Shown: positions 7,658 through 23,229, counted from the stretch's first letter. The stretch is DNA of 32,000 bases from an uncultured Bacteriovoracaceae bacterium (GCA_964012805.1 CAXGUD010000001.1:822-32821); one strand, 5' to 3'. Numbers and translations are program-made. The notes: a model not told the origin generated them from the sequence alone.

Positions 7658-8523
7658 TCATTCTCCTTATTTAAAATCCAATTATAAAAAACAAAACTAA
7701 ACAAAAGAATAAAAAGGAAGTAGATGAGAGAGAAGGCGCTAGCAATGCCTAAATCAAATTGGCCAACAGCGAGTTTCGTTAAAAACTGACTCAAAAAAGT
7801 CGTTGAATTCCCAGGCCCTCCTCCTGTTAGAACAAAAGGCTCTGTGTAAATCATAAAGCTGTCCATAAAGCGAAGCATGACAGCGATCATCAAAACATTT
7901 TTTAATTTAGGAAGCTCAATATGACGGAAAACGGCCCAACGGTTGGCACCATCAATAGCAGCGGCCTGGTAATAGGCTTCCGGTATTGCTTTTAAACCAG
8001 AATAGGCCAACAGTACAACAAGAGGAAGCCAGTGCCAAACATCCATAACAAGAACCGTCCACCAGGCATGACTTGGATTATTAGCGTAATTGTAAGTTAA
8101 ACCCAATTGCTTTAGAGTGTGCCCTAAAAGACCTATGTCCGATCTTCCTAATATTTGCCAAATCATACCCACAACATTGTGAGGAATTAAAAGAGGCATG
8201 GCCAGAATAACCAAGCAGAAGGAAACTCTTTTTCCCTTTTTAGGCAACAGAAGAGCGACACCAACACCCAGAGGAATTTGAACAAATAAGACTAAAAAAG
8301 AAAAAAGCATTTGCCTTAGAAAAGCCTGGTGAAGCTCTCTATTTTGGAGGACTTCCCGAAACCACTCCCATCCGACAAAAACTCTTTGGTTAGGCCCCAT
8401 TATATCTTGAAATGAATAATTGACGACGGTCATTAGAGGAATAACTGCACTAAAGGCAACCATTAAAAAAACAGGAAGGACAAAAAGCCAAGCCTTTTCA
8501 TTTTTTATCTTGCCATCTTTCAA
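7654..8523 (-). CDS. glpP: Glycerol-type ABC transporter permease (GlpP-like)
   Basis: MalF-type permease, EAA-like loop (EAYYQAAAIDGANRWAVFRHIELPKLKNVL), 4-bp overlaps with neighbours. Confidence 0.83.
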   Translation of the reverse strand: MKDGKIKNEKAWLFVLPVFLMVAFSAVIPLMTVVNYSFQDIMGPNQRVFVGWEWFREVLQNRELHQAFLRQMLFSFLVLFVQIPLGVGVALLLPKKGKRVSFCLVILAMPLLIPHNVVGMIWQILGRSDIGLLGHTLKQLGLTYNYANNPSHAWWTVLVMDVWHWLPLVVLLAYSGLKAIPEAYYQAAAIDGANRWAVFRHIELPKLKNVLMIAVMLRFMDSFMIYTEPFVLTGGGPGNSTTFLSQFLTKLAVGQFDLGIASAFSLIYFLFILLFSFVFYNWILNKENE

Positions 8524-9599
8524 AGAGACTCTCCAGGAAAAAGGGACACTTTACTCAAGGGAAACTCAACACCAACCCTGTCTCCATGGTGGATTGAATG
8601 GCGACCTTCCAAGACAGCTTTAATTGAAAAAGACTCTTGCTCCAAAGTGAGCAATTGACTTGCACCAAGATAATCCACCTTTTTCACCTTCCAAACCCAA
8701 TCATTTAAGAGACAGGGGTTTAAATTTAGACCAACATGCTGTGGCCTTATTCCTAAAGCCCCCACTCCGTCGGATTGCCTATCTAAGGTTTCAAGGTTTT
8801 TAAAATAGGATTCAATATGGGGAGTGACTTCCATAGGAGAAACTTTTCCCTTATGAACTTTGTAATTTAAAAAATTCATACCGGGAGTTCCAATAAAATG
8901 ACCAACAAAACTAGTTTTAGGGTTTTCAAAAAGGTCTCTTGGACAACCCTGCTGTAATATGCTCCCCTCCTCCATAACCACAACTTCTTCAGCAAAAGTA
9001 AGTGCCTCAGTCTGGTCGTGGGTAACATATAAAAAGCTCAATTCAAGCTCTGCATGAATCTCCTTTAACTTCTTACGGAGAAACCTTTTGAGGCGGGGGC
9101 TTACAGCGGTTAGAGGTTCATCAAAAAGTACCGCTGAGACATCTTTTCTAACAAGCCCTCTTCCAAGCGAAACGAGTTGCTTTAAATGAGGTGACAGTTC
9201 TTTTGCCCCATCCTTAAAGTGATCGGTAAGCTCCAACAATTCTCCTATTTCTTCAACTCTTTTTCTAATCTCGACAGAACCCATTCCGTAATTAAGAAGA
9301 GGAAAGGCCAAGTTTTGAAAAACAGTCATCGTATCGTAGACAACAGGGAACTGAAACACTTGCGCAATTTTCCGCTTTTGTGGTCCGAGGTTTGTCACGT
9401 CTTCTCCATCAAAAAGAACCTTACCCTCTGACGGAGTTAAAAGGCCTGACAAAATTTTAAGAAGGGTCGTTTTTCCACAGCCAGAAGGCCCTAAAAGAGC
9501 TATTCTTTTATGCTTTTCAAACATGCATTCAAGAGGTCCTAAAACCCATTTTTTCTGATCGTAGGAGTGCCTTACTCCTTGGAGTTCAATTTTTGCCAT
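8520..9599 (-). CDS. glpT: ABC transporter ATPase (GlpT-like), intact Walker A/B, non-canonical signature motif
   Basis: Walker A GPSGCGKTTLL, Walker B AVLFDEPL, H-loop YVTHD; signature replaced by ELSPHLKQLVSLGRGLV. Confidence 0.85.
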   Translation of the reverse strand: MAKIELQGVRHSYDQKKWVLGPLECMFEKHKRIALLGPSGCGKTTLLKILSGLLTPSEGKVLFDGEDVTNLGPQKRKIAQVFQFPVVYDTMTVFQNLAFPLLNYGMGSVEIRKRVEEIGELLELTDHFKDGAKELSPHLKQLVSLGRGLVRKDVSAVLFDEPLTAVSPRLKRFLRKKLKEIHAELELSFLYVTHDQTEALTFAEEVVVMEEGSILQQGCPRDLFENPKTSFVGHFIGTPGMNFLNYKVHKGKVSPMEVTPHIESYFKNLETLDRQSDGVGALGIRPQHVGLNLNPCLLNDWVWKVKKVDYLGASQLLTLEQESFSIKAVLEGRHSIHHGDRVGVEFPLSKVSLFPGESL

Positions 9600-9631
9600 A
9601 TACTGTGCCCTAGAAAATTAACCCTACTGTT

Positions 9632-10714
9632 TTAAGAAACACCACAAGGTGATTTTAGTAGTGGCCCTCCTAATTCAAAAACATAGGTCTCGCCCCAATT
9701 AGGCTTTAAATAATACACTTCACCTGGGATAAGATTTTCTATACCTCGTTTTTGTACCTGTAATTCAAGGCCATCCTCTTGCTTAAAGAAAGAAAAAGTT
9801 TCCAAACCATCAAATTCCTGATCTACCAACAGTGCCTCTAAGCAATGGTCGTCCTTTTTATTTACTATTTCTATATTTCCAGGCCTTATGCCTAAAAAGT
9901 ATTCGCCTAAGCCTACCCCTTTCAAATGAGTGGGAACAGGAAACGAAGACGCTTGCCCTAAAACAAGCTGAGACTCTTGTACACGACCTCTTAAAAGATT
10001 CATGGGAGGCTCACTCATCATCTGAGCGGTCTTAATATTGAGCGGCTTTTCAAATACATTCCGGGCCTTATCGTGCTGAAGAATCTGACCATCTTGTAAA
10101 ACAATCGTATCGCCACCCAGACTTAGGGCCTCCCTTGGATCAGCAGTTGCGTAGACAACCGTTGAAGAGCCTTTCTTCAAAATATCCTTTAATTCTTCAC
10201 GGAGTTGCTCCCTCAACTTGTAATCGAGGTTGACAAGAGGATCGTCCAAAAGAAGGAGGTCTGCATCCTTCGCCAGGGCCCTGGCAAAAGCACACCTCTG
10301 CTGCTGTCCACCTGATAACTCCGTCGGTAGACGCTTTAAAAAGTCATGTAGCCCAAATAGCTTGGCCAGCTCTTCAACTTTTTGATTGATTACGCCCTTA
10401 GCGCAACCCCTTCTTCTAAGGGGCGATGCAATATTTTCAAAAACTGTTAAGTTTGGGTAGTTAATAAACTCTTGGTATACAACAGCTATATTTCTTTTCC
10501 TTGGACTCAACCCTGATATATTCACTCCTTTTTGAAGAAGTCTTCCACCACACGGCTTCACAAGACCTGCCAAAACACGAAGTAACGTCGTTCTTTCTCG
10601 GCTTGCAGTCGAAAGAAGACCATGAAGAGTTCCCTCTTCAATTCTGAGGTTTATTCCTGCCAGGATATCTTTTCCTTCATCACGTACAGCAATATTTTCC
10701 ATCACCAAGGCCAT
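9632..10714 (-). CDS. glpS: ABC transporter ATPase (GlpS-like), degenerate Walker A, intact LSGGQ
   Basis: LSGGQQQRCAFARAL signature; P-loop position reads STASRERTTLL; Walker B LLLLDDPL; H-loop position YATADP. Confidence 0.83.
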   Translation of the reverse strand: MALVMENIAVRDEGKDILAGINLRIEEGTLHGLLSTASRERTTLLRVLAGLVKPCGGRLLQKGVNISGLSPRKRNIAVVYQEFINYPNLTVFENIASPLRRRGCAKGVINQKVEELAKLFGLHDFLKRLPTELSGGQQQRCAFARALAKDADLLLLDDPLVNLDYKLREQLREELKDILKKGSSTVVYATADPREALSLGGDTIVLQDGQILQHDKARNVFEKPLNIKTAQMMSEPPMNLLRGRVQESQLVLGQASSFPVPTHLKGVGLGEYFLGIRPGNIEIVNKKDDHCLEALLVDQEFDGLETFSFFKQEDGLELQVQKRGIENLIPGEVYYLKPNWGETYVFELGGPLLKSPCGVS

Positions 10715-10897
10715 GATTGGAATTTCCTTTACTAGAATTAAGGACCTTTAGTCCCTAAAACAATTTCATTAACTTGAGTTAAATTGAGTAAGGGCGAGTT
10801 TAGAACAAGAGTCTTATCATTTCAAGAAATCCTATCAGGAATAATAAATCCTTGATCAAGAAAAGTTAAACGCGCTGTCTCCTAAGCAGTGGGGACC

Positions 10898-11263
10898 TCA
10901 GAGAGAGTCCAAAAGCTCATAGAGTTCTTCGAGAATTAAAGGCTTTTGAAGAAAGAAACTTAAAGACAAAGAAGATGCCAAAGCTTTTACTTCTTTAATA
11001 TTTCCTGAGATAAAGACAATGATAGTATTTTGATTCGGCCCATCAGAGTTCCTGATATCCACGGCCAAATTTGCACCTTTAATCACAGGCATCCTGTGGT
11101 CTAAAAAAATAACATCAAAAGCTTCATTATCAAGAAGATCTTTATATTGGTCTTTTTCACTAGCGATAGAAACTTCATATGAAGATCTGAGTTCAAGACC
11201 TTGCTTAAGCATTTCAAGAATTTCTTCTTCGTCGTCAATAATAAGTATCTTTTTTTTGCCCAT
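10898..11263 (-). CDS. stand-alone response-regulator receiver domain protein
   Basis: ILIIDDEEE, VIFLDHRMP phospho-acceptor Asp, FISG, LQKP Lys. No output domain. The supplied ORF starts at 11272 (GTG); the ATG at 11263 has an AGGTGG site at good spacing. Confidence 0.88.
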   Translation of the reverse strand: MGKKKILIIDDEEEILEMLKQGLELRSSYEVSIASEKDQYKDLLDNEAFDVIFLDHRMPVIKGANLAVDIRNSDGPNQNTIIVFISGNIKEVKALASSLSLSFFLQKPLILEELYELLDSL

Positions 11264-11491
11264 AAAACCCACCTGGCTTACCTGACTACACCGTTTAAGT
11301 AATAAACCGATTTCTTTTTCAATTTTACCTGAAATCCAAAAAGATTGAAGGCGTTATCTTTCCATTGTGATAGAAAAGATCACAGAACTCATTTAGAAAA
11401 CTGTTTTAGTCTCTTTCTTTCTATGGCCACCAAATAAAAACCTTTAATAATTTTATTTAAAGTCGACAAGAACTAACAATAAGGAATTGTT

Positions 11492-11515
11492 TTTTAGAAG
11501 TTTTAATTTCTAAAA
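11492..11515. repeat. perfect 8-bp inverted repeat TTTTAGAA-N8-TTCTAAAA in the 5' region of the motor-like cluster
   Basis: Direct read of sequence; lies just upstream of the first gene's probable ATG (11544). Confidence 0.6.
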
Positions 11516-11543
11516 CCGGAGTTTGAAGGAAAATAAAAAAAAA

Positions 11544-12587
11544 ATGCATAGAACAATTAAATCATTCACCCTTATTGTATTTCTTATCCTGATCATACTA
11601 CAAGACAGATCAAAAGCCGCATCTGAGAAGACCGCTTCCCCCGTTTATAATACTTTTGAATACTTGCTAGGAGAATTCAAAGCAGATATTGATGGTCTTG
11701 CAAAAAAAGTTAGTAATTCGATCCTTCTTAAAGTTTCAGTTGAAGGAGATATAGATAAAACCTTTAATAGGCATGTTAGGCGGTCTTTAGAGTCTTTTCG
11801 CATTAAAGGAAAAAAGTTTCGCTTCCGCCAATGTAAGGCCTGTACTTCTTTAAGGGCCGAAACGATAGGCAATCAAATATACCTTAAAAAGGGAATTACA
11901 GAATTTAAGGATATTCAGGAAATCACTCAAAAACTTGGAACAATGTCTTACGCGGAAGCAAGTGTCGAGGATACCGGAACAAGGCTCATTTTTAAGGTTT
12001 CTTTTTTTAGCTCGCTCAATGCAGAACTTCTTTGGAGTAAAACCTATCAAATGAGGCTCGTCAGCTTTGGTGACCTCAGTTTTACAGCAGCGCTTGAAGT
12101 TAAACAGGCCTTTGGAAGAAATAGCCCTCTTCTTTTTAATGCCTCTTTTGGTGAAAAAATCTATGGTATAGGCCTTATTGACCTCAATGTCACACTAGGC
12201 TTAGCATCAGGGAAAGATAACCCCGAGCAAAAAAAAGGTAGTAGTATCGTCCTTAACCCCAATGAAGATTATGTGAACAGTTACTTTGCTATAGGGCCAA
12301 GGTTAACAGTTAACATTAACGAATTTTTTCAAATGTATTCAAACTGGGGAAGTCAGTTTATCTATGCAGGAACCGGTTTTTGCCAATACACTCGATTGAA
12401 AACAAGCAACGATACAGAAGCACCTACTGGAAAATGGGGCCTTCATATTGAAGCGGGGTATGGAGTTCATCTGGGTAGAACTTTTCTCATCACAGCAGGT
12501 TTAAACAAAGGTCTTTTTCTCAGTTCAGATGACAAAGATCAGGATTATCCTCTTCTCTTTAATATAGGATTTGGATTTAGGTTTTAA
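11544..12587 (+). CDS. signal-peptide protein with N-terminal periplasmic domain and probable C-terminal outer-membrane beta-barrel
   Basis: Supplied ORF begins at 11523 (TTG); ATG at 11544 starts MHRTIKSFTLIVFLILIILQDRSKAA. C-terminal half has repeated amphipathic strand-like segments and ends GFGFRF. Confidence 0.7.
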   Translation: MHRTIKSFTLIVFLILIILQDRSKAASEKTASPVYNTFEYLLGEFKADIDGLAKKVSNSILLKVSVEGDIDKTFNRHVRRSLESFRIKGKKFRFRQCKACTSLRAETIGNQIYLKKGITEFKDIQEITQKLGTMSYAEASVEDTGTRLIFKVSFFSSLNAELLWSKTYQMRLVSFGDLSFTAALEVKQAFGRNSPLLFNASFGEKIYGIGLIDLNVTLGLASGKDNPEQKKGSSIVLNPNEDYVNSYFAIGPRLTVNINEFFQMYSNWGSQFIYAGTGFCQYTRLKTSNDTEAPTGKWGLHIEAGYGVHLGRTFLITAGLNKGLFLSSDDKDQDYPLLFNIGFGFRF

Positions 12588-12636
12588 TTTAAGCAAGCAT
12601 TTTTGAATGAGTGTTATCCCCAAAAAGAGAAAAACC

Positions 12637-13302
12637 ATGATGAAAAAATTATTAATTTCTTTTTTTATCCTTGGACCGTTAACTCAATTGAGTTTCTCTC
12701 AAACATCAATCAAAGAAAAAGACGGCTATATCATCATAAAAGAAGGAAAAAGCCGGGTTCAACTCAACCTTCCGGAAGAAATGAAAGGAGCTGATTCCTA
12801 CATTATAAAGGTGAACAAACTTACAGACTCCAAATCTATTAACGCCGACATTTTAAACCGATCGAAAAACCTAGGTCTTTTTAAAAAAACAAAGGATGAT
12901 CTTAAAAAAGGAGCCGTTAACGAAGCCCTTAAAATTGAATTAATCAAAAAAAGCAATGAAGGAACTTTGAGTAAAAAAGAATTAAAGCTTCTCAATGACT
13001 TAAAGGATCAAGAAAAAGATATTAACAAGAAAAAGAATTTAGATGTTATCACAAACCTTGCCATTGAGAGTTATCTTAAAAAGGCTAATGACGCCTACAA
13101 TGCGAAAAATTATAAAAAGGCCCTTCATTACTCGGAAATGGCCGATCAATTAGACTCTAAAAATTATCGAATCAAGGCCATGATAGGTTCACTTCACTAC
13201 CGATTAGGAAATGACCAACTCGCCAAAAAGTATTGGACGGATTCGCTAAAGTTCAACCCCAACCAACCGAATATTAAGCTGTACATGAGAAAAATAAGGT
13301 AA
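12637..13302 (+). CDS. secreted or lipid-independent periplasmic TPR-containing protein
   Basis: ATG at 12637 gives signal peptide MMKKLLISFFILGPLTQLSFSQ; TPR-like repeats YLKKANDAYNAKNYKKALHYSEMADQLDSKNYRIKAMIGSLHYRLGNDQLAKKYW. Confidence 0.75.
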   Translation: MMKKLLISFFILGPLTQLSFSQTSIKEKDGYIIIKEGKSRVQLNLPEEMKGADSYIIKVNKLTDSKSINADILNRSKNLGLFKKTKDDLKKGAVNEALKIELIKKSNEGTLSKKELKLLNDLKDQEKDINKKKNLDVITNLAIESYLKKANDAYNAKNYKKALHYSEMADQLDSKNYRIKAMIGSLHYRLGNDQLAKKYWTDSLKFNPNQPNIKLYMRKIR

Positions 13303-13377
13303 TTTTTTTAAAAGTGACAAACGTTTCAATCTTAAATGACTTACCTTTTAAGACTGTTCGTTTATGAAGAGATGTAA

Positions 13378-15186
13378 ATGAGGCTTAATTTAAAATTAAA
13401 ATATTTATGGATCTTCTTAATTTTTCTTCTCTTCAGCGGGCCTAAAGGTGCTTTTACACAAGAAGCATCTCTTATGAGGAACCAACTTCAGCTCGAAAGT
13501 GAACTTAATTCACAAGTAAGAAAAGAGCTCCTCCAAGTTTTCAAAAAAGAGGAATTTATTATCTCTTCCTCTATAAAATTAAAAAGTTACAGAGTTACAA
13601 AAGTTCTGGAACAAGAAAGCCAAATAAACAAACAACCTAAAAAAAAGGGAAGTGAGCAAGAAATACTGCCAGGTTTTTACGATTCTGCCCCCTCAATAAC
13701 AAACGAAATGGCCAATGAACAAGTAAGAAAAGTATATGGCCACGAAACAAAAACTGAATTAGAAAAGGCCCAATTGAAGATTTTAGTCGATGAAAGCGTA
13801 ACAGATACCAGGCTTGACGCAGCAAAAAAATTACTCACTCAAAGGTTAACAAATAGCTTTGGAGGAAAAATTGACATCCAATTCCTCCCAGCTGTCCTCA
13901 AATCAAAATTAGCACCAGTTCCTTTTTACCAAGAGTTTACTGGATACCTAAAGGATAATATGGGACTGCTTCTCCTGTTTTTTTGTTCACTTATCTTTCT
14001 TTTTGTCCTTGCTTCTTTAATCAACCGTATAAGGCCAAAAGATCAAATGCCTCCGGTTTGGTCATATAACCCACCTATGACACCCCCAATAGATTCAATG
14101 GGAGGCTTTGGTGGCCCCCCTCCTCTTCCTGGAGGAGGTCAAAGACCTCATATAGAATTAGGCCCCAACACTCTTCCCCTACCAGGAAGTCATGAAAAAG
14201 AACTTGATGAATTAGAAATAGACAAAAAAATAAACAAATTTGTTAGCGTTATATGCAAAGAACCTTTTGTCACAAGAAAGTTTTTTCAGACCCTTGATAG
14301 AGATAATCAAAAAAGCTTTATGGCGCTTTTTACAAGTAAGAGTTCAAAAGTGGCGCTTGGAGAATTTTTTGGAGAAACACTTTTAGGACCAGAAGCAGGC
14401 GATATTGCCAGTCTGGACAATGAGATGGACCTTGAGGAAAAAGCCGAATTTTTAGAGTTTATCTCTCTAGAACATGATAGATTTAAAAACCTTATGGCCA
14501 TCAAAAATGGCCAGCGTTTTTCTATTTTATCTCTTATGAATGATAAGGAACTTCAATACGTCTTTTCGAATGAGTCCCCCAGAGATATTGCTTTTCTCCT
14601 TCACTTTCTTCCAAGAGACTCCATTTCTGGTGTTTTAAGCAGGATGGATAGCGAACAGAAAACTGAAATTATTTTAAACTTGAAAAAGTCCTCTCAATTA
14701 TCAGGAGAAGATGAAAGAGAAATTGAAGAAAGGCTTAATAAAAAAATTAATACTTTTGCCTCAAGCGCTTTTTCAACTTTCATGAGTGAAGACTCCTTAG
14801 TTGGAAGTATCTTAGATGAGTCCGATAATGCCCAAGAAATTTTAGATAGAATATCAAGTAAAGATAAAAACCTTGCTAAAAGCTTCAAATCCCACTCATT
14901 AAACTTTGATTATTTTATAGAAAATGAATTGGACTCTCTTGCAAGAATTTTTGAAACAATACCAAATGAAATGTTGGCCTTAAGCCTTATCGAATATGGT
15001 AAAGATGAAAGATCAACAATTTTAGAAGCACTTTCCCCCACAAGGAGAAAAGTCATCGCTTCTTCAATGCTCATGAACTCAAAAGCATCACACGAAGAAA
15101 TAAGAAAAGCCAAATTAGAGTCATCTAAGATTGCTCGGAAAACCTATCAATTATTACAAAGAAATAAAATGGGTAAGGCATCATGA
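13378..15186 (+). CDS. membrane-anchored FliG-like protein: signal/periplasmic region, TM helix, Pro/Gly-rich linker, FliG-like cytoplasmic domains
   Basis: N-terminal hydrophobic segment, TM MGLLLLFFCSLIFLFVLASLI, linker with GGFGGPPPLPGGG; NESPRDIAFLLHFLPRDSISGVLSRMDSEQKTEIILNL resembles FliG middle domain; SILDESDNAQEILDRISSKDKNLAKSF...LALSLIEYGKDERSTILEALSPTRRKVIAS...IARKTYQLLQ resembles FliG C-terminal domain. Confidence 0.72.
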   Translation: MRLNLKLKYLWIFLIFLLFSGPKGAFTQEASLMRNQLQLESELNSQVRKELLQVFKKEEFIISSSIKLKSYRVTKVLEQESQINKQPKKKGSEQEILPGFYDSAPSITNEMANEQVRKVYGHETKTELEKAQLKILVDESVTDTRLDAAKKLLTQRLTNSFGGKIDIQFLPAVLKSKLAPVPFYQEFTGYLKDNMGLLLLFFCSLIFLFVLASLINRIRPKDQMPPVWSYNPPMTPPIDSMGGFGGPPPLPGGGQRPHIELGPNTLPLPGSHEKELDELEIDKKINKFVSVICKEPFVTRKFFQTLDRDNQKSFMALFTSKSSKVALGEFFGETLLGPEAGDIASLDNEMDLEEKAEFLEFISLEHDRFKNLMAIKNGQRFSILSLMNDKELQYVFSNESPRDIAFLLHFLPRDSISGVLSRMDSEQKTEIILNLKKSSQLSGEDEREIEERLNKKINTFASSAFSTFMSEDSLVGSILDESDNAQEILDRISSKDKNLAKSFKSHSLNFDYFIENELDSLARIFETIPNEMLALSLIEYGKDERSTILEALSPTRRKVIASSMLMNSKASHEEIRKAKLESSKIARKTYQLLQRNKMGKAS

Positions 15187-15240
15187 ATGAAGATAAGGAA
15201 AAAAATAGTTTTATAAAACCAAACAAAATAAAGGTCTAAA

Positions 15241-15990
15241 ATGCTAGCGAGATTACTACAACTCCCCTTCAGAATTTTGGGAATAGCCTTGATTTTGGCC
15301 GGGACCTATATTTGTGTTAAGTATGATGTGAAGCCTTCTTATTACGGTATTTACCATCCACCATCTCTTGCCCTTGTTGGTTTAGTTTTGGCCGGTGTGG
15401 CGATGTTCAGCTATAAAATTCAAACACTCTTTAGTATTTTCTTAGGTTGCTTAGGTGAATCACCCAGTTCATGCCGCTCCTATTTTCAAATCATGGAAAA
15501 AAAACTACCGGAACTTATTGACGTTTACTTTAGTGAAGGGCCCTCGGCACTAACCTCTCGCCTCCCTAACGGGTCAGAAAAAGAGCTTTGGCTTCAGGTC
15601 TTTACTAAGTTAGAAGCACAAATTTCACCAAGTGATTTGATTCAGGTTATGAATAAATATGCTTCTGACTATAAATCAAGAATCAATAGAGAAGTTTTAG
15701 TCGCCGGAACGGTAGGAAGTTTGGCCCCAACAATAGGTGTTTTAGGTACAGTTTTGGGCCTTATAAAACTTTTAGGGAACCTTCAGGACTTTTCAAGCTT
15801 GGGTTCTAATATGGCCTTGGCACTGATAACAACTCTTTATGGAATTGTTTTCAATGCGCTTCTCATAACTCCCGTTGTAGGTCGGTTAGAGGAATATAGG
15901 ACCTTTAGGCTTCAAATTTTTAGACAGATAATTTATTGGCTTGAATGCCTGGAACAAAAAAGAGCAGGCAGTGTTATAGAGCATAAATAG
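15241..15990 (+). CDS. MotA-like stator protein
   Basis: IYHPPSLALVGLVLAG, then GTVGSLAPTIGVLGTVLGLIKLLGNLQDFSSLGSNMALALITTLYGIVFNALLITPVVGRLEE, matching the conserved MotA TM3-TM4 pattern. Confidence 0.88.
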   Translation: MLARLLQLPFRILGIALILAGTYICVKYDVKPSYYGIYHPPSLALVGLVLAGVAMFSYKIQTLFSIFLGCLGESPSSCRSYFQIMEKKLPELIDVYFSEGPSALTSRLPNGSEKELWLQVFTKLEAQISPSDLIQVMNKYASDYKSRINREVLVAGTVGSLAPTIGVLGTVLGLIKLLGNLQDFSSLGSNMALALITTLYGIVFNALLITPVVGRLEEYRTFRLQIFRQIIYWLECLEQKRAGSVIEHK

Positions 15991-16020
15991 TCTATAAAAA
16001 ATAAGGAGTCACAACTCCAG

Positions 16021-16713
16021 ATGACCAAAAAACGTCATAAGGAAAAAGCTTCCTCTTTCGATGATGACCAAGAAAGCGGAGCTGAGAGCATTTCTAAATC
16101 TAGCTGGGCCGCATCCTATGGTGATGTTGTTAGTGTTCTTTTGTGTTTTTTTATCATCCTTTCAACAACAAGTAATATGAATTCAAAAAATGTTGAAAAA
16201 ATGAAAGAGGCCATGAGTGATGAAACACCTCAAGGTAAAAAGAAAAAGCTCAAATCAAAAGACGTCATGAAAAAACTCAAAGAGATAATTAAAATAAAAA
16301 ATCTTCAGAAGGATATCACTCTTGTAGAGGAACTTGACGGAACAAAGCTCATTATTAATGATCGTCTTCTTTTTTCTTCAGGAGGCGCAAAAATCATGCC
16401 TGAAAACATCGGAGAAATAAGAGAAATTATAAGAAGCTTTATCGACCTACCACCTCACTACCGGTTTAAAGTCGAAGGCCATACAGATGATGTTCCCATC
16501 AAAAGTAGAAAATTTCCTACAAATTGGCACCTCTCAGTTTCAAGGGCCCTTTCTCTTTTACAAGTTTTTCTTCAAGAAGGTATTTATGAAAAAAGACTAA
16601 GCTTCCATGGCTTTGCTTCATTCCAACCTCTTGCAAAAACTGAGGGGCTTCAGGGTGAAGACCTTAGAAAGGCCAGAAAAAAGAACAGAAGAGTTGTCAT
16701 TAAGGTTTACTGA
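16021..16713 (+). CDS. MotB-like stator protein with OmpA-like peptidoglycan-binding domain
   Basis: WAASYGDVVSVLLCFFIILST (plug/TM with ion-binding Asp35, codon 16123-16125) and RFKVEGHTDDVPIKSRKFPTNWHLSVSRALSLLQVFL. Confidence 0.9.
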   Translation: MTKKRHKEKASSFDDDQESGAESISKSSWAASYGDVVSVLLCFFIILSTTSNMNSKNVEKMKEAMSDETPQGKKKKLKSKDVMKKLKEIIKIKNLQKDITLVEELDGTKLIINDRLLFSSGGAKIMPENIGEIREIIRSFIDLPPHYRFKVEGHTDDVPIKSRKFPTNWHLSVSRALSLLQVFLQEGIYEKRLSFHGFASFQPLAKTEGLQGEDLRKARKKNRRVVIKVY

Positions 16714-16766
16714 CTCAACAATCATCCATTAAAATAACTTATCAACAAAGAAGATGAATTTATTTT

Positions 16767-17855
16767 ATGAAAAAGAAACACCCATTTTTTTTGGGACTTT
16801 GTATTAAGGTCCTTCTTTTTACCATAATTTCTCCTTTCGGGGAAGCTGCAACGAACTTTTTTAAAATCACAAACATTAATTCAGGGGGTGATCCACTTGT
16901 TAACGCTGCACTTTTGGAATTTGAATCCAATGTCAATCAAAATCTTCCTTCAATAGAAAGTACTGACCTGACAACAGATACAGTCAACTCCAATATCATC
17001 TCTAATAAGGGACTTGGAGTTGACTATACAAACTCCATGAAACGTTTTTTGGTAGGCTGGTCTCAAAGTGCTTCAGTTAATGTCGGAAGCAGTGAAAATA
17101 TCCTAAGTGGGGCCAAAACCGTAAAAGGTTTTGGAATGGCAACCCAATTTAACTTAGGGTTTAACCTTCAACCTTTAAAGAAACGTAAATTGATCAACCT
17201 ACCTTCATTTTGGGGTCTCGACCTTAATAACTCAAAAATTTTTATGGGCCTAATGACCGGACGAACAAGCCAAAAAGTAAGTGGTTATACACTCGGCTTC
17301 GAAATTTTTACCGCCAACCTCCGTATTATGACGAAGCTCAAAAAAGCTGAAGACTTCAAAAGCTACTTTTTTAAGTGGGGTGGTATTGACTTAAGCACAG
17401 GGCTCGAAACTAATAAAACAGCCCTCTCAGTCAGTGTGCCAAGAAATGAGTCAATTACGGCTTCCAATTCATACAAAACAACTTTTGACGGCATAGTTGG
17501 CTTTAAGGTCGATTCCTCAAGTTTTAGTATTCCTCTTGAAGTCTCAGCCAGTGCAACCTTCTTTTCTTTTATCGATTTGTTTTGGGGCCTTGGTACTGAT
17601 TTAAACTTTGGGTATGGAAGGGGCTCGAGTTTTTCAGACTCTAATGTCTTGATCTTTGATAACTTAAATAACCAAGTTGGAACTGCTGACGCCGAGTTCA
17701 ATGTAGGCTCAACAGGGTCCCCCTCAATCTTGAATGCTCGGTGGTTTGCTGGGACCCAAGTTAACCTATGGAAAATGAAAGTTTCACTTCAAGCACAACA
17801 TTCTATGATCCACGGGATTTGGGGCTTTGGAGGTAATTTTAACTTCATTTTTTAA
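16767..17855 (+). CDS. probable outer-membrane beta-barrel protein
   Basis: Signal peptide, Gly/aromatic alternating strands, C-terminus GGNFNFIF ending in Phe. Confidence 0.65.
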   Translation: MKKKHPFFLGLCIKVLLFTIISPFGEAATNFFKITNINSGGDPLVNAALLEFESNVNQNLPSIESTDLTTDTVNSNIISNKGLGVDYTNSMKRFLVGWSQSASVNVGSSENILSGAKTVKGFGMATQFNLGFNLQPLKKRKLINLPSFWGLDLNNSKIFMGLMTGRTSQKVSGYTLGFEIFTANLRIMTKLKKAEDFKSYFFKWGGIDLSTGLETNKTALSVSVPRNESITASNSYKTTFDGIVGFKVDSSSFSIPLEVSASATFFSFIDLFWGLGTDLNFGYGRGSSFSDSNVLIFDNLNNQVGTADAEFNVGSTGSPSILNARWFAGTQVNLWKMKVSLQAQHSMIHGIWGFGGNFNFIF

Positions 17856-17872
17856 GTATTCGGATTCTTTCT

Positions 17873-20467
17873 TTAGATACTTGGAATAATTAAAGAAAAG
17901 GTTGTCCCCTCTCCTTCCTTCGTATCAATTTCGATTCTGCCGCCTAGACTTTCAATATTTTTAAGGACGACATCCATTCCCACTCCCCTACCGGATATCT
18001 CAGTTACATTACTCGCCGTCGAAAAGCCTGGTTTAAAAATGAGTTCTGTCTTTTCTTTTTCATTTAAAAAGTCTTTCGTGGAATCTATGAGACCTTTTTC
18101 TATGGCCTTATTATAAACATCTTCACCATTGATTCCCCGGCCATCATCTTTCAAAGTTAGAATAATATCAGGTCTTTTACGGGTTAGACTAACTTCTATA
18201 TTTCCACTTTTTTCAATTCCATGAGCTATACTATTATTGATAAGATGGATAACAGATTCCCTTATAATTTTTGCATTTTTTCTGTCAAAAAGGGCCTCTA
18301 CTCCACTTACTTTAAAAGATACATTTTTTTCAAGTTTTCTTGCTTCTCTAAAAACTGTTGGCTTTAACTTCAACAATTCTCCTTTTAATTCACTCATCAT
18401 GAGGTTTGCAAAAATTCTTAAAACGGCTTTTGCAGAAGTCATCTCTTTAGCTGAATGAAGAGCTACTTCAAATTTATTTTTTGGGACCTCGATAAACTCC
18501 TCAGACCCATCACTTTCAGAGGAAAGAAACTCTTCCCCAAAAACTTCTTGCGCGCTCTCTTTATAAAAAGTAAGGAGTTCCGTGAGCATTTCTTTAGTCC
18601 GTTCTATCCCATTTTTTTCATAATCAGTTTCAAATCCATGAACTTTATTACTTAATGACTCCAAATTAAAGAACCTTGAACTTCCTTTAATTGTGTGCAG
18701 ACTTCTTTTGACCCCTTCCTCATCACCCCACTCTTCCAATGTTTCAAAAACCTCTTTAATAAAAACTCTAAATTCACTTTTAGTATTGGAAACAATTTCC
18801 TGGAGGACTTGAATCCTGTATTCAGCTTTTTCCTGAGAAACTCTAACAGCTTCTTTTAACTTTTCCTCCTCAGTTATGTCCTCAATAATAAACATAATTC
18901 TTCTTACGATTTCTTGATCATCAATAATAGGACTTAATTGAATTTTTACAATCTTCTCATCTCCGTTTTCCATTTTTAAATTAGTCATCTTGGGAATAAC
19001 ATCTTGCATACTATCAAATTGGAAAATATCCATGTTGATAGAAATACTAAAGACAAAGGCCATTTTTTCTCTAAATTCTTGATTAAAAAGCTCCGCACAT
19101 ACATTTTTCCCTACAATATCTACACCAAATATTTCCGCAGAGTATTTTGAGACAGGAAAAATTACTTTATAAGATTCATCCACAGAAAAAACAGCTTGGC
19201 GCATATTATTCAATATATCTTTTGTCTCATTCAATGAGGAAAAGAGTTCATTTGTCCTTGCTTTAACTTTATTTTCCAAACCCAAATTTGTTTTTTCAAT
19301 TTTACGATAGAGCAATTTAAGTTTATGGTTAGCATCATTTAACTCTTCCGCCCTAATTGCGATGTCATCCCTTTGTAATTTTATATACTCTGCAAAACCA
19401 AAGGACAGAACAATAAGCTTGAGAGAAGTACCTAATAAAAGAGAGTTATCAATGAAGAGGTAAGGTCCAAGAACTTTAAATTTAAATAATATCTGGACAA
19501 TAACAAACAGAACAAAAATATTAAGCGATATGAAAAAATATTTAGCAGTAACACTACCCTTCCTTAATTCATCGTAGGAAAACCAGAATGAAAAAATTAT
19601 GATGGTTGAAAAATAAAAATAAGAAAAGCCTAGGCCGGCCGTAATGGGAGTAAAGAGGCAAACAAAGGTCAGGACGAGTCCTCCCTTTATAAAATTGTTG
19701 CAAAAGTGCAGTAGTTTTTCTCTATCCAGATTTATATAACTTTTTCCAAAAATCAATAAAGTGACGCCAGTTAGGGCAACTAAGCTATTTTGGCCTTGAC
19801 CAGATAACCAGGAACCTTTAAGAAAAGAAACAAATACCATAAGCGTTAATGATAAAACAAAGGCATAAAGAGAAAAAAGAATATAGTTAATATAATTGGA
19901 GGTTAAATAATTGAAAATATTATAAATTATTAATAAAATAATAACTCCATAAAAAAATGAATATAAAGTTTTTTCTTCAAATTGTTTTTCATAGAAAGAA
20001 TCAATCTTTAAAATAGAGATGGGCAACTTTACTTTTTCTTTAAACCTATTACTTTTAAGAACTTGGATAAGCACTTCACTTGTATTTGATTTAATTTTAA
20101 AACTAGGATGTCTATTTTTTAGCCTGAAAAGCATAGAATTATCAGGAGACCAAACCTCAGTTCCTCCTGAAGCTGACTTATAGTAGAATTTAAAGTTCTG
20201 AAAATAGCTATTGTTTATAGTAATAACCTTTTCGAAAGGCCGCTTGGAAATTTTAACCTTTATGTATAGGTCTTTTTTAAAATCATTTAAGATATAGGAG
20301 TCTTCGATGGATTTAACTTTTTGAATATTATTTGGTTTAATAAGTCCTTTGACACCTTCTTCTAACGAACCCAAATATTGAAAAGCCTCGACTTCATATC
20401 CAGAACCAGAAAAACTATTTCCCATGAATAAAGAAATAAAAAATAGAAATGTTATTACTGTTCTCAA
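17873..20467 (-). CDS. hybrid sensor kinase: 7TMR-DISM-like sensor and TM region, PAS, Hpt, CheA-type HATPase; no CheW domain
   Basis: Seven hydrophobic helices after an extracytoplasmic domain; PAS-like NMRQAVFSVDESYKVIFPVS...ITEEEKLKEA; Hpt motif RSLHTIKGSSRFF; N-box IIRESVIHLINNSIAHGIE, DDGRGI, GRGVGMDVV, GEGTTFSLIIP. Confidence 0.85.
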   Translation of the reverse strand: MRTVITFLFFISLFMGNSFSGSGYEVEAFQYLGSLEEGVKGLIKPNNIQKVKSIEDSYILNDFKKDLYIKVKISKRPFEKVITINNSYFQNFKFYYKSASGGTEVWSPDNSMLFRLKNRHPSFKIKSNTSEVLIQVLKSNRFKEKVKLPISILKIDSFYEKQFEEKTLYSFFYGVIILLIIYNIFNYLTSNYINYILFSLYAFVLSLTLMVFVSFLKGSWLSGQGQNSLVALTGVTLLIFGKSYINLDREKLLHFCNNFIKGGLVLTFVCLFTPITAGLGFSYFYFSTIIIFSFWFSYDELRKGSVTAKYFFISLNIFVLFVIVQILFKFKVLGPYLFIDNSLLLGTSLKLIVLSFGFAEYIKLQRDDIAIRAEELNDANHKLKLLYRKIEKTNLGLENKVKARTNELFSSLNETKDILNNMRQAVFSVDESYKVIFPVSKYSAEIFGVDIVGKNVCAELFNQEFREKMAFVFSISINMDIFQFDSMQDVIPKMTNLKMENGDEKIVKIQLSPIIDDQEIVRRIMFIIEDITEEEKLKEAVRVSQEKAEYRIQVLQEIVSNTKSEFRVFIKEVFETLEEWGDEEGVKRSLHTIKGSSRFFNLESLSNKVHGFETDYEKNGIERTKEMLTELLTFYKESAQEVFGEEFLSSESDGSEEFIEVPKNKFEVALHSAKEMTSAKAVLRIFANLMMSELKGELLKLKPTVFREARKLEKNVSFKVSGVEALFDRKNAKIIRESVIHLINNSIAHGIEKSGNIEVSLTRKRPDIILTLKDDGRGINGEDVYNKAIEKGLIDSTKDFLNEKEKTELIFKPGFSTASNVTEISGRGVGMDVVLKNIESLGGRIEIDTKEGEGTTFSLIIPSI

Positions 20468-20626
20468 TTTTTTTTCAACTTTTTCACTTTTAAATTAGTA
20501 CTTGCTGATAATACTTGTCGGCTAAAATAGAAAGAACCTAAACCATTGAAATAAATAATTAGATGCTCTTAAAACGCCAAAATTTAAACTTAGTGAGAGT
20601 AGAAAAAATCAGCAAAGAAAGGTAGT

Positions 20627-21055
20627 TTAAAGGACCTTATTGAAACCATTAGTGGTTAAAATATCAATCGCAGCATCGACCTCAAATCTATAAAAAACAT
20701 TGAAGTCTTGTGGGAAATAAGATGTAGCATTATCTAAACATGAACTAATTTTTCTTACAGAAATCTTATTAGAAAACTTTGAACAACCTATATAATCCAT
20801 AAATCTGTCCCCGAACTCGACTCTTTTTAAAAGGTAGAGCGCTAGTCCCCTATTTTTGTTATCGATTATCAAGTATTTGGAAATGACGTTCTTTACGATT
20901 AAAATTCTAAAAAGGTCATAAGGACTTTTTTCACTTAAGTTTTCTTTTTCAAAGATATAGGACCTTTTAGGAAAATGAATACCACCAAAGGCCCCATGAG
21001 AAGTAAACAAAATAACTATAAATAATACTTTTAATATTCCATTCATTGTTTTCAC
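20627..21055 (-). CDS. small secreted hypothetical protein
   Basis: GTG start after AGGGAAAAG, alternative ATG at 21046; signal peptide LKVLFIVILFTSHGAFG; two Cys in mature part. Confidence 0.65.
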   Translation of the reverse strand: MKTMNGILKVLFIVILFTSHGAFGGIHFPKRSYIFEKENLSEKSPYDLFRILIVKNVISKYLIIDNKNRGLALYLLKRVEFGDRFMDYIGCSKFSNKISVRKISSCLDNATSYFPQDFNVFYRFEVDAAIDILTTNGFNKVL

Positions 21056-21300
21056 GGCTTTTCCCTACTTCAATAAAACGTGCACTAACTTTAATCTATT
21101 GTAGAAGAATTTTTATTTATAAAGAAACTTTTCCTTCGGGTAGTCCTGTGAGTAGAGGTTGCGTTGAAAAAACAGTGTTTTATTTGGCCAGACTTAAGAG
21201 GGGATACCAGCGGCCTTCATCGGTTAAAATAAAATTTGTTTAAATGTCTTGTTTTCTTGGCATTTTCTTAATTTTTTAAAAGAAATTTTATTTTGGAAAC

Positions 21301-21327
21301 TAGGCCTCTTCCCGGAGGAAGGGCCTA
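21301..21327 (-). terminator. hairpin terminator downstream of lipoprotein gene
   Basis: TAGGCC(T)CTTCC-CGGA-GGAAGGGCCTA stem-loop 12 bp after the stop; only a weak T-rich tract. Confidence 0.5.
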
Positions 21328-21338
21328 AACTTAAGGAA

Positions 21339-22091
21339 TTATTTCATCAATGTTGAAGAAAGAATATCTTTCATATGCTCTGGAGTTGTATCATTAGTTT
21401 CAGCAGCTCTAACTATAAGAGCGTCTAAATCTTTTGAGTCACCTTCCATTGACTTTTTGAAAGCTTTAAGTCCTTCACTCGCATCAAAACCAAGAACTTC
21501 TTTAAAGAAAACTTTTGAGTCTTCTGCCGTCATTTGACGAGACTTAGAAGCTTTTTTCCAACCTTGAGCAAGCTTAGCAACGGCAAAAGCCCTGTCCTCA
21601 CTCAAGCCAAATTCGCTTACTAAATGCTCTTCAACTTTCTTAAGGTTCATTTTTTCAACTTTTTGTCCTAACTTTTCCAAATCTTTTGAAGAAGGTTTTG
21701 TTAGTTCGAAAAGATAACCATAGTCATCCATGTAGACTGTATTTCCATAATCATCAAGTCCCCATGGCTCTACATATCTAGAGTTATAGTAATAATGGTC
21801 ATCTGCAAACGTTGTGTTCTCATTAAAATCCCAAACATTCACAGCACGGTATTGATCATTATCGTAATCATAGACTACTATCCAACCATCATACTGCTCA
21901 GTATTGTACTTTTGGAGATAATACTGATCTGGGTTAGAAACACCAGCATCATAATTTAGAGTATCAACAAACCAATCTGCCTCAGCGTAGCCAATACTTG
22001 CAGGGGGGTTATAACCACCTCCGCCTCCACCAGAGCAAGAAACTAGTACAAGAGAAAGTGCCATAAGAAGAATTGAAATAGATTTTTTCAT
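21339..22091 (-). CDS. lipoprotein with poly-Gly linker after the lipobox
   Basis: MKKSISILLMALSLVLVSCSGGGGGGYNPP; lipobox LVSC. Confidence 0.8.
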   Translation of the reverse strand: MKKSISILLMALSLVLVSCSGGGGGGYNPPASIGYAEADWFVDTLNYDAGVSNPDQYYLQKYNTEQYDGWIVVYDYDNDQYRAVNVWDFNENTTFADDHYYYNSRYVEPWGLDDYGNTVYMDDYGYLFELTKPSSKDLEKLGQKVEKMNLKKVEEHLVSEFGLSEDRAFAVAKLAQGWKKASKSRQMTAEDSKVFFKEVLGFDASEGLKAFKKSMEGDSKDLDALIVRAAETNDTTPEHMKDILSSTLMK

Positions 22092-22335
22092 AAGCTTTAA
22101 GTCCTTTTGTATAAAGATCGTCTTAAGTTATTTACACTTTTATCTCCCTTTAGATACAGATAAGGACCCACTTTTTCAAATAAGTTTAGATAAAACCTCT
22201 TTGAAAGAAGAGTATGTATGATTTTCTGGGAAAATGTCAGAAAAAAAGTCCCAAGTTGATACCAAAATAATGAAATTCTTAGCTAAGTCACGTCTTTTTA
22301 ATGATGAAAAGAGAAGTAGATCGCTATGCGCAATG

Positions 22336-23229
22336 CTAATTTTTTGTATACTCTTCAGGATTTTCCAACACATCTATAAACTTTTGAAGACCAAACTTTG
22401 CCACAAGCCCCCCCTCGATTCTTTCATCAAATGAGATCCTGATGGGTAAAACCCTTTCAATTTCAACCTTCCCCTCTTTCGAAATAACTTCATCTTGAAC
22501 TTTCCCTACCATAGCGAAGATCGGACAATTACCCCACTCATAAAGATGATGGAAACCAGGTCTCATTTTCAAGCTTCCTAAGTTGGTTATAATAAGGGAA
22601 GTAAAAAGACCGTCTTCTTTGTAAAACCAAAAAGGAAGTAAGTTATAGTGATCCAAAAATGCAGCGAGTTTGTATATGGGACCAAAAATAAAGTTGGGTA
22701 AGGAGGAAAATAAAGAATGCTCTTTATCTGAATAAGTCTCTTTATCACTTCTCTCTTCTTTAACTCCACCTTTTATCCGCTCGCATAAATCATCAAAATT
22801 TTTAAACTTAGAAAGATTCAATTTTAGAAAAGAGGTTTTTGATCCCATTTCTTTCAAGTCTTTTTTCACGGTAAAAGAAATATGAACACCATTTCTTAAA
22901 TACAGTCTATTACCAGAGCAAAACCGGTTCATTTCCGGACAATTTTCCAAAGCAACCTTTCCCGCCCAAACCAAAATATTCATAATACTGAACCGGTCGT
23001 TATGCTTTTTAACAAAAGTTTCTAAGTTTTTGGCCCTAATCGATACATCAAAATAAACTGTTGAGGACTGCCTGTCGGGGCAAGCAAAAAGGAGCATAGT
23101 CCTAAAGGGATGGAGGTTTTTAACAAGTTTTCCATCACTTCTTCCACGCTTTAAATTTAAAAGAACCCAAATCAAAACGACAAAAAAAATAAGACCACCT
23201 ATTAATTTAAAATCTAAAACAATAGTCAT
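22336..23229 (-). CDS. membrane-anchored 2-oxoacid dehydrogenase E2 catalytic-domain-like protein, degenerate active site
   Basis: N-terminal TM helix; TSLIITNLGSL and final motif ISFDERIEGGLVAKFL-type (FDERIEGGLVAKFG), corresponding to FDHRxxDGxxAAxFL of E2 acyltransferases. No lipoyl domain. Confidence 0.65.
   Translation of the reverse strand: MTIVLDFKLIGGLIFFVVLIWVLLNLKRGRSDGKLVKNLHPFRTMLLFACPDRQSSTVYFDVSIRAKNLETFVKKHNDRFSIMNILVWAGKVALENCPEMNRFCSGNRLYLRNGVHISFTVKKDLKEMGSKTSFLKLNLSKFKNFDDLCERIKGGVKEERSDKETYSDKEHSLFSSLPNFIFGPIYKLAAFLDHYNLLPFWFYKEDGLFTSLIITNLGSLKMRPGFHHLYEWGNCPIFAMVGKVQDEVISKEGKVEIERVLPIRISFDERIEGGLVAKFGLQKFIDVLENPEEYTKN

Follow-up and report, generated by a model that had tools for sequence, protein, structure and literature searches.

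The window analysed here, a 32,000-nucleotide stretch of DNA from an uncultured Bacteriovoracaceae bacterium (GCA_964012805.1 CAXGUD010000001.1:822-32821), carries a cluster of six genes, W1 to W6, in which the third encodes a membrane protein that appears to be a natural fusion of the flagellar rotor proteins FliF and FliG, and the fourth and fifth encode a MotA-type and a MotB-type stator subunit. With moderate confidence, the cluster is interpreted as encoding an autonomous motor that consists of the rotor/stator core of the flagellum and works independently of any flagellum. The homologies to this core, the architecture of the proteins and the linkage of the genes are conserved among diverse bacteria, and the genes are under purifying selection. 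An earlier examination of the sequence by itself (the original prediction) had proposed that rotor/stator logic operates here in a non-flagellar context, and this proposal survives domain, fold, profile and neighbourhood tests; neither of the findings that would have overturned it, a lack of FliG similarity in the third gene or further flagellar genes close to the cluster, was observed in the window or in the annotated related loci.

Gene layout and constraint

The six open reading frames (ORFs) lie consecutively on the plus strand at ~11.5-17.9 kb of the window, with intergenic gaps of 19, 75, 54, 30 and 53 bp. Lengths below are in amino acids (aa), and RBM, TM and TPR stand for ring-building motif, transmembrane and tetratricopeptide repeat.

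W1, 11544..12587 (TTG alternative start 11523), plus strand: secreted protein of ~347 aa, probable small outer-membrane beta-barrel; core module
W2, 12607..13302, plus strand: periplasmic protein with a signal peptide and a C-terminal TPR region; core module
W3, 13378..15186, plus strand: 602 aa, candidate single-chain rotor (FliF-type RBM3, TM segment, FliG-like region)
W4, 15241..15990, plus strand: 249 aa, MotA-type stator A subunit
W5, 16021..16713, plus strand: 230 aa, MotB-type stator B subunit
W6, 16767..17855, plus strand: 362 aa, secreted, Lsa36-like, lineage-specific accessory protein

These coordinates agree with the original prediction except at the first start, which it had placed at 11492. 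The first possible start is the TTG at 11523, and the ATG at 11544 is more likely because AAGGA stands 13 nt upstream of it and the same start is used in the closest named genome, a Halobacteriovoraceae metagenome-assembled genome (MAG; L001, related loci being numbered in this way below) with ~80% nucleotide identity and identical gene order. The gaps, predicted to be 30-75 bp, measure 19-75 bp. Because the ratio of nonsynonymous to synonymous substitution rates (dN/dS) relative to L001 (80% identical) is 0.01-0.10 for all six genes, they are concluded to be true genes subject to strong purifying selection. Among public sequences, the nearest is a contig from a marine metagenome (MDTD01182839.1; L021, 43.6 kb), which is 99.8% identical over 14.7 kb (window 8240-22987) and probably comes from the same population as the source of the window. 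Promoter and terminator scans gave no more sites than shuffled sequences, and nothing was found in an Rfam search.

W3 combines FliF-type and FliG-like halves in one chain

The W3 polypeptide proceeds from a signal/anchor helix (residues 2-19) through an RBM3 and collar region (~26-172), a TM helix (~183-217) and a disordered Pro/Gly linker (219-272) to a FliG-like region (278-601), the cytoplasmic helical region being ~325 residues long and comprising an N-like helical part, FliG_M and FliG_C. Pfam matches to FliG_M (43.1 bits), FliG_C (33.4 bits) and MgtE_N (32 bits) all exceed their cut-offs, and the FliG_C match was present in 21/21 diverse members of the W3 family. A sequence search of the PDB returned Thermotoga maritima FliG-MC (E=3e-8), Foldseek comparison of an AlphaFold2 (AF2) model with the PDB matched FliG over 318 aligned columns, approximately the whole protein (E=1.9e-7), and the profile of the cytoplasmic part was aligned by hhalign with FliG residues 3-326 (99.9%, E=2.4e-36). 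The FliG likeness that the original prediction had seen in this gene is thereby borne out. When the FliG_C segment was used in isolation, phmmer found no match in the PDB, profile methods being needed for its detection. W3 falls well below the cut-off of the FliG equivalog (TIGR00207, 44.4 bits vs 226.7) and, unlike canonical FliG, a soluble protein of ~330 aa, is a 602-aa membrane protein.

The periplasmic half of W3 points to FliF. The AF2 model was built on an alignment of 111 family sequences and has a mean predicted local distance difference test score (pLDDT) of 84.6, with values of 94-98 in the periplasmic domain, whose alpha-beta-beta-alpha-beta fold with a long hairpin follows the pattern of an RBM. 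Foldseek matched this model to ~18 FliF S-ring/RBM3 structures in the PDB (E=1.3e-4 to 2e-3, probability 1.0), followed by SpoIIIAG (E=0.048), and a poorer model based on seven sequences gave the same sets of matches. Furthermore, the periplasmic profile of the family was aligned by hhalign with residues 231-432 of E. coli FliF (94.1%, E=1.3e-7, 144 columns), the FliF profile being an alignment of the E. coli protein with seven plasmid-borne FliFs; in Salmonella numbering, this range is exactly RBM3a, the beta-collar and RBM3b (PMC11739650). The collar of W3 has one hairpin and that of FliF has two. RBM1 and RBM2 are absent from W3, as its periplasmic region of ~150 residues aligns with RBM3 alone and gives no Pfam YscJ_FliF match. 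The most conserved element of the family, an LPGF motif (W3 residues 97-100; P in 109/111 and G in 110/111 sequences), is located in the loop at the hairpin tip and is aligned with the conserved GVPGAL loop atop the FliF beta-collar.

By its modelled fold and profile alignment, the periplasmic half of W3 is an RBM3/beta-collar domain of the FliF MS-ring. Because this half matches FliF RBM3 and the cytoplasmic half matches FliG, W3 is interpreted as a natural single-chain FliF(RBM3)-TM-FliG fusion with a predicted membrane topology like that of FliF. The original prediction had assigned a membrane anchor to the FliG-like protein; the protein is indeed anchored, and it was overlooked that the anchor has the features of a FliF domain.

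Independent support for reading W3 as FliF plus FliG comes from a locus that shows the same logic without the fusion. Contig Ga0233447_1001654 of the Joint Genome Institute (L041:4985-9954) encodes, in order, a 324-aa mini-FliF, a 329-aa FliG-like protein, MotA, MotB, a 164-aa protein of no recognised family and a 342-aa TPR protein. The mini-FliF consists of a TM segment, RBM3 only, a second TM segment and a short cytoplasmic tail; it matches PF08345 (YscJ_FliF_C, 44 bits), aligns with FliF 231-432 and carries LPGL as its version of the loop motif. The N-terminal part of the 342-aa protein is beta-rich, and its TPR region, at the C-terminus, is homologous to W2 (hhalign 91%, E=1e-6). The MotA of this locus has an ordinary score, and the module is flanked by Fic on one side and phosphomannose isomerase/GlnRS on the other, with no other flagellar genes.

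A flagellar-type stator

The MotA-like and MotB-like assignments of the original prediction hold for W4 (Pfam MotA_ExbB, 69.7 bits) and W5 (MotB_plug, 42.6 bits; OmpA, 37.4 bits). Among NCBIfam models, W4 scores 57-66 bits with MotA/PomA/MotP, 29 bits with TolQ and 15-18 bits with ExbB, all under the equivalog cut-offs (66 vs 340 for MotA), and its PDB matches at E<0.01 are confined to flagellar MotA/PomA, with no ExbB or TolQ structure. It has four hydrophobic segments, and the equivalents of P173 and P222 of E. coli MotA are invariant in the MotA alignment of the module; hhalign with E. coli MotA gave 92%, the match beginning at residue 97. W5 scores 88-122 bits with MotD/MotB/MotS models, again below the cut-offs (best 122 vs 283), and hhalign with E. 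coli MotB (98.4%) places its D35 on the channel aspartate, D32. This residue is kept in every complete homologue, and the plug and the OmpA-like peptidoglycan-binding domain are retained. A domain search found no TonB/TolA domain in the cluster. Because W5 possesses a MotB-type plug and an OmpA-type domain and W4 has four hydrophobic segments, which are the criteria of PMC12505986 that can be checked here, the two proteins are assigned as a flagellar-type stator, predicted to have a rotor interface of its own.

MotAB relatives also occur in the anti-phage system Zorya, and W5 indeed matches ZorB models in PADLOC at 45-65 bits, while W4 matches ZorA very weakly (13 bits). That the cluster is a Zorya-type defence system is nevertheless very improbable: the ZorB matches are of the generic MotB type and weaker than those to flagellar MotB-type models (up to 122 bits), the long tail of ZorA is missing, neither ZorC/ZorD nor ZorE/F/G is present, and the other four proteins have no PADLOC match. 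In addition, a FliF/FliG rotor is foreign to that system, and the genomic context of the module is one of housekeeping genes rather than defence islands.

A conserved five-gene module

An exhaustive profile search with W3 identified 276 relatives at E<=1e-3, most of the top 150 being 480-724 aa long and matched over their full length, and the rotor architecture is common to at least 100 sequence clusters (50% identity). Homologue searches with a diverse alignment (A2) and a distant member (P0016) returned, apart from two FliG proteins of the ordinary kind, almost nothing beyond the query and its close relatives. Comparison of contig neighbours by phmmer and hidden Markov models (HMMs) was extended to distant family members, which are ~20% identical to W3. 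A module of five genes, encoding barrel-like, TPR, rotor, MotA and MotB proteins, is found in ~16 loci from diverse uncultured bacteria. The rotor gene lies beside MotA and MotB genes in all loci with flanking sequence (L001, L002, L004-L010, L020, L021, L025-L027, L030), and homologues of W1 and W2 are present in 12 loci (L001, L003-L005, L007-L010, L020, L021, L025, L030), which are all those with enough upstream sequence; the W1 homologues are about 300-350 aa long. Because homologues of W6 are confined to two close relatives, L001 and L002, the conserved unit has five genes, of which W6 is not one; the six-gene operon of the original prediction stands as a unit for the first five genes, with synteny across related loci.

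Gene order varies between barrel-TPR-rotor-MotA-MotB and barrel-TPR-MotA-MotB-rotor, and in a third arrangement (L030:3542-8315; also L029 and L031), W1, W2 and the rotor are divergent from MotA and MotB on the opposite strand, showing that linkage is maintained despite rearrangement. The neighbours in annotated loci are housekeeping genes (rpoBC, ribosomal proteins, gyrA, lepA, GAPDH). Domain searches revealed no flagellar genes elsewhere in the 32-kb window, and none was found within 7-10 kb of the module in the annotated loci L002-L010, in keeping with the original prediction that flagellar genes are missing here; specifically, fliM and fliN are absent from the window and from the annotated related loci. 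In the metagenome module loci L020-L031, where FliF and FliG were the only two proteins screened, no canonical form of either was found outside the rotor protein.

A reverse test, in which metagenomes were scanned with a six-sequence alignment of the module MotA and 80 loci were returned for an HMM census, gave bimodal MotA scores (>=172 in 12 loci and <=119 in 68). The rotor was present in 6/6 high-scoring loci with enough flank and an RBM3-like domain in 0/68 ordinary MotA loci, the latter being a weak negative as many contigs are short. Lineage labels include Halobacteriovoraceae (L001) and, for the family member P0009 (MBI2981155.1), the NCBI label of a 'Deltaproteobacteria bacterium' MAG; the GC content of the remaining metagenome bins with the module is 28-48%.

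Two local variations were noted among these loci. In L003, W1 (L003:3314-4389; 222 + 84 aa) and the rotor (L003:5055-6697; 172 + 375 aa) are each split into two ORFs; the splits could stem from frameshifts in the assembly or mean that the module is decaying in this lineage. In L005 (4312-5518) and L007 (6326-7670), the module is adjoined by a sigma factor of the extracytoplasmic function (ECF) type (Sigma70_r2) and by a protein of 255-278 aa, homologous between the two loci, that may be an anti-sigma factor.

The reduced gene set and the split genes of L003 would also fit a decaying, functionless relic of a lost flagellum. We regard this explanation as highly unlikely, since decay is at odds with the low dN/dS of all six genes, with an architecture kept at ~20% identity in >100 clusters with near-invariant residues, and with the consistent linkage to non-flagellar partners.

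A more serious alternative, though still an improbable one, is that these genes supply accessory or alternative parts of a true flagellum, namely a paralogue of part of the rotor and an additional set of stators for use under particular conditions. Every recognisable domain is flagellar, and Bdellovibrio carries several motAB pairs. Moreover, isolates of Halobacteriovorax are polarly flagellated, with the flagellar pathway intact (PMC12724312), and by analogy with these isolates, the module likely co-exists with a canonical flagellum in this organism. Nevertheless, W3 has neither RBM1/RBM2 nor the EHPQR motif through which FliM is bound; the corresponding sequence in the window is NESPRD, the positions of which are variable across the family (<60% conservation). 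W3 and W4 also lack the charges with which to pair with canonical MotA or FliG, and the module travels with W1 and W2 and with no flagellar gene in ~16 loci and several gene orders. To these points may be added that W1, W2 and W6 resemble none of the 28 E. coli flagellar proteins with which they were compared.

Candidate envelope partners

In W1, a signal peptide is followed by an N-terminal domain in which a CxxC is conserved (C104 is invariant) and by a Gly/aromatic-rich C-terminal half that ends in GFGFRF. The N-terminal domain was not matched to any known fold, and the barrel signal is confined to the C-terminal half, where OMP_b-brl_2 and OMP_b-brl match below the Pfam cut-off (E=2e-3 and 6e-3). 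Beyond this weak OMP barrel signal, Pfam and NCBIfam gave nothing, and PDB sequences contained no match. On this basis, W1 is a probable small outer-membrane beta-barrel. Of the two barrel-like proteins of the original prediction, W1 is thus weakly supported, and W6 is not: it gave no evidence of a barrel and no Pfam-A match, is nearest to the NCBIfam model Lsa36 (NF047512, 71.6 bits with a cut-off of 90), which describes a Leptospira surface-protein family, and has a homologue in L002 labelled as PF28316 Lsa36. Hhalign detected no relationship between W1 and W6. The periplasmic TPR protein, W2, has a signal peptide and one TPR (TPR_2, residues 193-219), the score of which, 24.8 bits, is just under the cut-off; weak matches of the PilW/BamD type were also seen. 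The possibility that W1, W2 or W6 is an L-ring, P-ring or rod homologue was considered and rejected, as hhalign against 28 E. coli flagellar proteins (FlgA-N, FliE-R) gave <1% in each case.

A proposed mechanism and its difficulties

The following working model is proposed. The RBM3/beta-collar domains of W3 would oligomerise into an S-ring-like periplasmic ring, which the TM helix and flexible linker would join to a FliG-like ring under the membrane. Ring formation is inferred from the ability of an RBM3 fragment on its own to build an S-ring and collar (PMC11739650, PMC8786727) and of engineered FliF-FliG fusions to assemble rings (PMC11481574); by analogy with the published self-assembly of RBM3 fragments, the W3 ring might contain about 33-34 subunits. 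W4 and W5 would form units of the MotA5B2 type, held on peptidoglycan by the OmpA-like domain, and ion flow through the channel at W5 Asp35 would make the MotA ring rotate against the FliG_C-like domain, thereby driving the W3 ring. Because W3 lacks both RBM1/RBM2, which house the export gate, and the FliM-binding motif, such a machine would have no rod or filament export and no FliM/FliN switch.

At the periplasmic side, the LPGF loop is aligned with a FliF loop thought to associate with the rod, and in place of a rod the collar and this loop would engage the Sec-exported W2 and W1, the only candidates for this role. TPR proteins scaffold stators in Campylobacter-type motors. W1 and W2 could either scaffold the stators in a similar manner or serve as the load to which torque or force is transmitted, at the outer membrane or the surface of the cell, and the work done by the machine could be surface movement or work within the envelope.

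A fuller statement of this model is offered more tentatively, at slightly less than an even chance. It holds that the module is a free-standing rotary engine, an MS-ring/FliG/stator core that has no type III export, no rod, hook or filament and no switch and is coupled to its own outer-envelope partners, and that this engine either is a pared-down descendant of the pre-flagellar motor or survives as its relative.

Several observations weigh against a motor of this kind, beginning with those on the contact between rotor and stator. According to hhalign (E. coli numbering), FliG D288/D289 correspond to S562/S563 of W3 (9-12% acidic in the family), R297 to S571 and K264 to I538. On the stator side, MotA R90 is replaced by F97 of W4 (Y/F across the family) and E98 by T105 (variable), and the cytoplasmic loop of W4 is divergent from that of flagellar MotA, with HMM matches that begin only at ~residue 122. 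The sole charge kept on the torque helix is R556 of W3 (91% K/R in the family), one position after T555, which is aligned with FliG R281. It is mainly because the charge pairs are not conserved that confidence in classical torque generation is only moderate. In addition, the FliG_N-like part of W3 is recognised from fold and length, its first ~100 residues aligning with low confidence, and because W1 and W2 are without informative homologues, the output of the module is a guess.

The missing canonical torque-interface charges would favour, instead, a non-rotary force or signal transducer resembling the Ton and Tol systems, in which the MotAB unit pulls on W3 or changes its shape, W3 being monomeric or a small oligomer, and acts through it on the TPR protein and W1, e.g. 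for gating, envelope maintenance or trans-envelope signalling. The parts do extend from the inner membrane across the periplasm to the outer membrane; other motors of the 5:2 type are reported to act on periplasmic partners in this way (PMC12204202, PMC12965293); and the ECF sigma factor and probable anti-sigma gene beside the module in L005 and L007 recall TonB-dependent signalling, although the window and most loci have no such genes. A transducer is nonetheless considered unlikely, albeit less so than any other alternative discussed here. W3 has no extended periplasmic linker or C-terminal domain like those of TonB/TolA; its periplasmic domain is instead an RBM, of which a homologue self-assembles into 33-34-mer rings (PMC11739650), and on the cytoplasmic side it carries an entire FliG-like unit. 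With its plug and OmpA domain, the stator is likewise nearer to MotA/PomA than to ExbBD/TolQR. A rotary motor remains the preferred interpretation.

Relationship to known systems

With the flagellar core (FliF, FliG and MotA5B2), the module shares an RBM3/beta-collar domain between two membrane helices, the FliG middle and C-terminal domains, the four hydrophobic segments and both prolines of MotA, and the channel Asp, plug and OmpA-like domain of MotB. In contrast to that core, FliF and FliG here form one polypeptide, RBM1/RBM2 are absent and with them the housing of the export gate, EHPQR is missing, and no fliM/fliN, export, rod, hook or filament genes are nearby. The canonical charges (MotA R90/E98; FliG D288/D289/R297/K264) are also lacking, and W1/W2 partners are always linked.

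The nearest natural precedent is the FliF-FliG fusion of Chlamydiaceae (Bergeron 2016, PMC4768692), in which a shortened FliF is joined to a FliG-like domain in the absence of a flagellum. That protein of ~330 aa contains RBM2, an unassigned RBM and only the middle domain of FliG, and was proposed to be a partner of a type III secretion system; no MotAB, TPR or barrel partner genes are described in that paper. W3 differs from it in that RBM3 and the collar are retained, the FliG-like region is full-length and includes FliG_C, and a dedicated stator is encoded alongside. Engineered Salmonella and Vibrio FliF-FliG fusions (PMC11481574, PMC10941966) show that a covalent FliF-FliG chain can assemble MS/S-rings, but these are laboratory constructs with full-length FliF in a complete flagellar system. 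In sporulation, SpoIIIAG also assembles a large ring through an RBM into which a beta-hairpin is inserted. It comes with neither a FliG domain nor a stator, and its likeness to W3 is far weaker than that of FliF RBM3.

In ExbBD-TonB, TolQR-TolA, AglRQS-Glt, GldLM and ZorAB, as proposed here, a channel of the MotA/ExbB family powers non-flagellar work beyond the inner membrane. The module stator differs from ExbBD, TolQR and ZorAB in scoring nearer to MotA/PomA than to TolQ/ExbB/ZorA and in having a B subunit with a flagellar-type plug and OmpA domain, and it is MotA/MotB-like where AglRQS is TolQR-like. We know of no non-flagellar 5:2 motor (Exb/Ton, Tol, Agl-Glt, GldLM, Zorya) that uses a FliF/FliG-type partner. 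In the available text of a survey of MotAB relatives (PMC12505986), FliG is named once in the main text and no FliF/FliG-type partner is described. No description of the module was found in the literature searched, the coverage of which mostly excludes subscription journals, so that a prior description is possible.

What appears to be new is a flagellar rotor/stator core in a flagellum-free configuration with new envelope partners. If the proposed interpretation is true, the module would constitute a seventh class of machine driven by a 5:2 motor and a new kind of envelope-spanning, ion-driven machine. How the flagellar motor originated is a long-standing question, one part of which is whether a torque-generating rotor and stator could persist and serve a purpose in the absence of a secretion apparatus and filament. 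A conserved, selected module of RBM3/FliG and MotAB, in fused and split forms and with non-flagellar partners, makes that question testable. It also raises the questions of whether a minimal ring rotates, what the ring drives, and whether the module is basal to flagellar FliF/FliG/MotAB or derived from them. As the rotor and stator genes occupy only ~2.3 kb, the module is a possible compact model for torque generation, and its divergent rotor-stator interface provides a natural experiment on which contacts are essential.

Neighbouring genes in the window

The cluster is bordered by two signalling genes on the minus strand. Just upstream and divergent is a gene for a stand-alone CheY-like receiver (10898-11272), and just downstream and convergent is a gene for an 864-aa 7TMR-DISM/PAS/Hpt/HATPase kinase (17873-20467), which has an Hpt domain and no HisKA match, so that its phosphorylation site would resemble the CheA arrangement. 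Both are kept in the close relatives L001 and L003 and not in distant loci, and they may be lineage-specific regulators of the motor. Apart from this receiver and kinase, the window encodes an ABC transporter, an allantoicase and other proteins unrelated to the cluster. Among the proteins unrelated to the motor are a 604-aa Lnb_N/DUF7840/DUF7843 protein (1429-3243, minus strand) and a 697-aa protein (26107-28200, plus strand) with a transglutaminase-elicitor domain (PF16683, E=1e-35), a family known from oomycetes.

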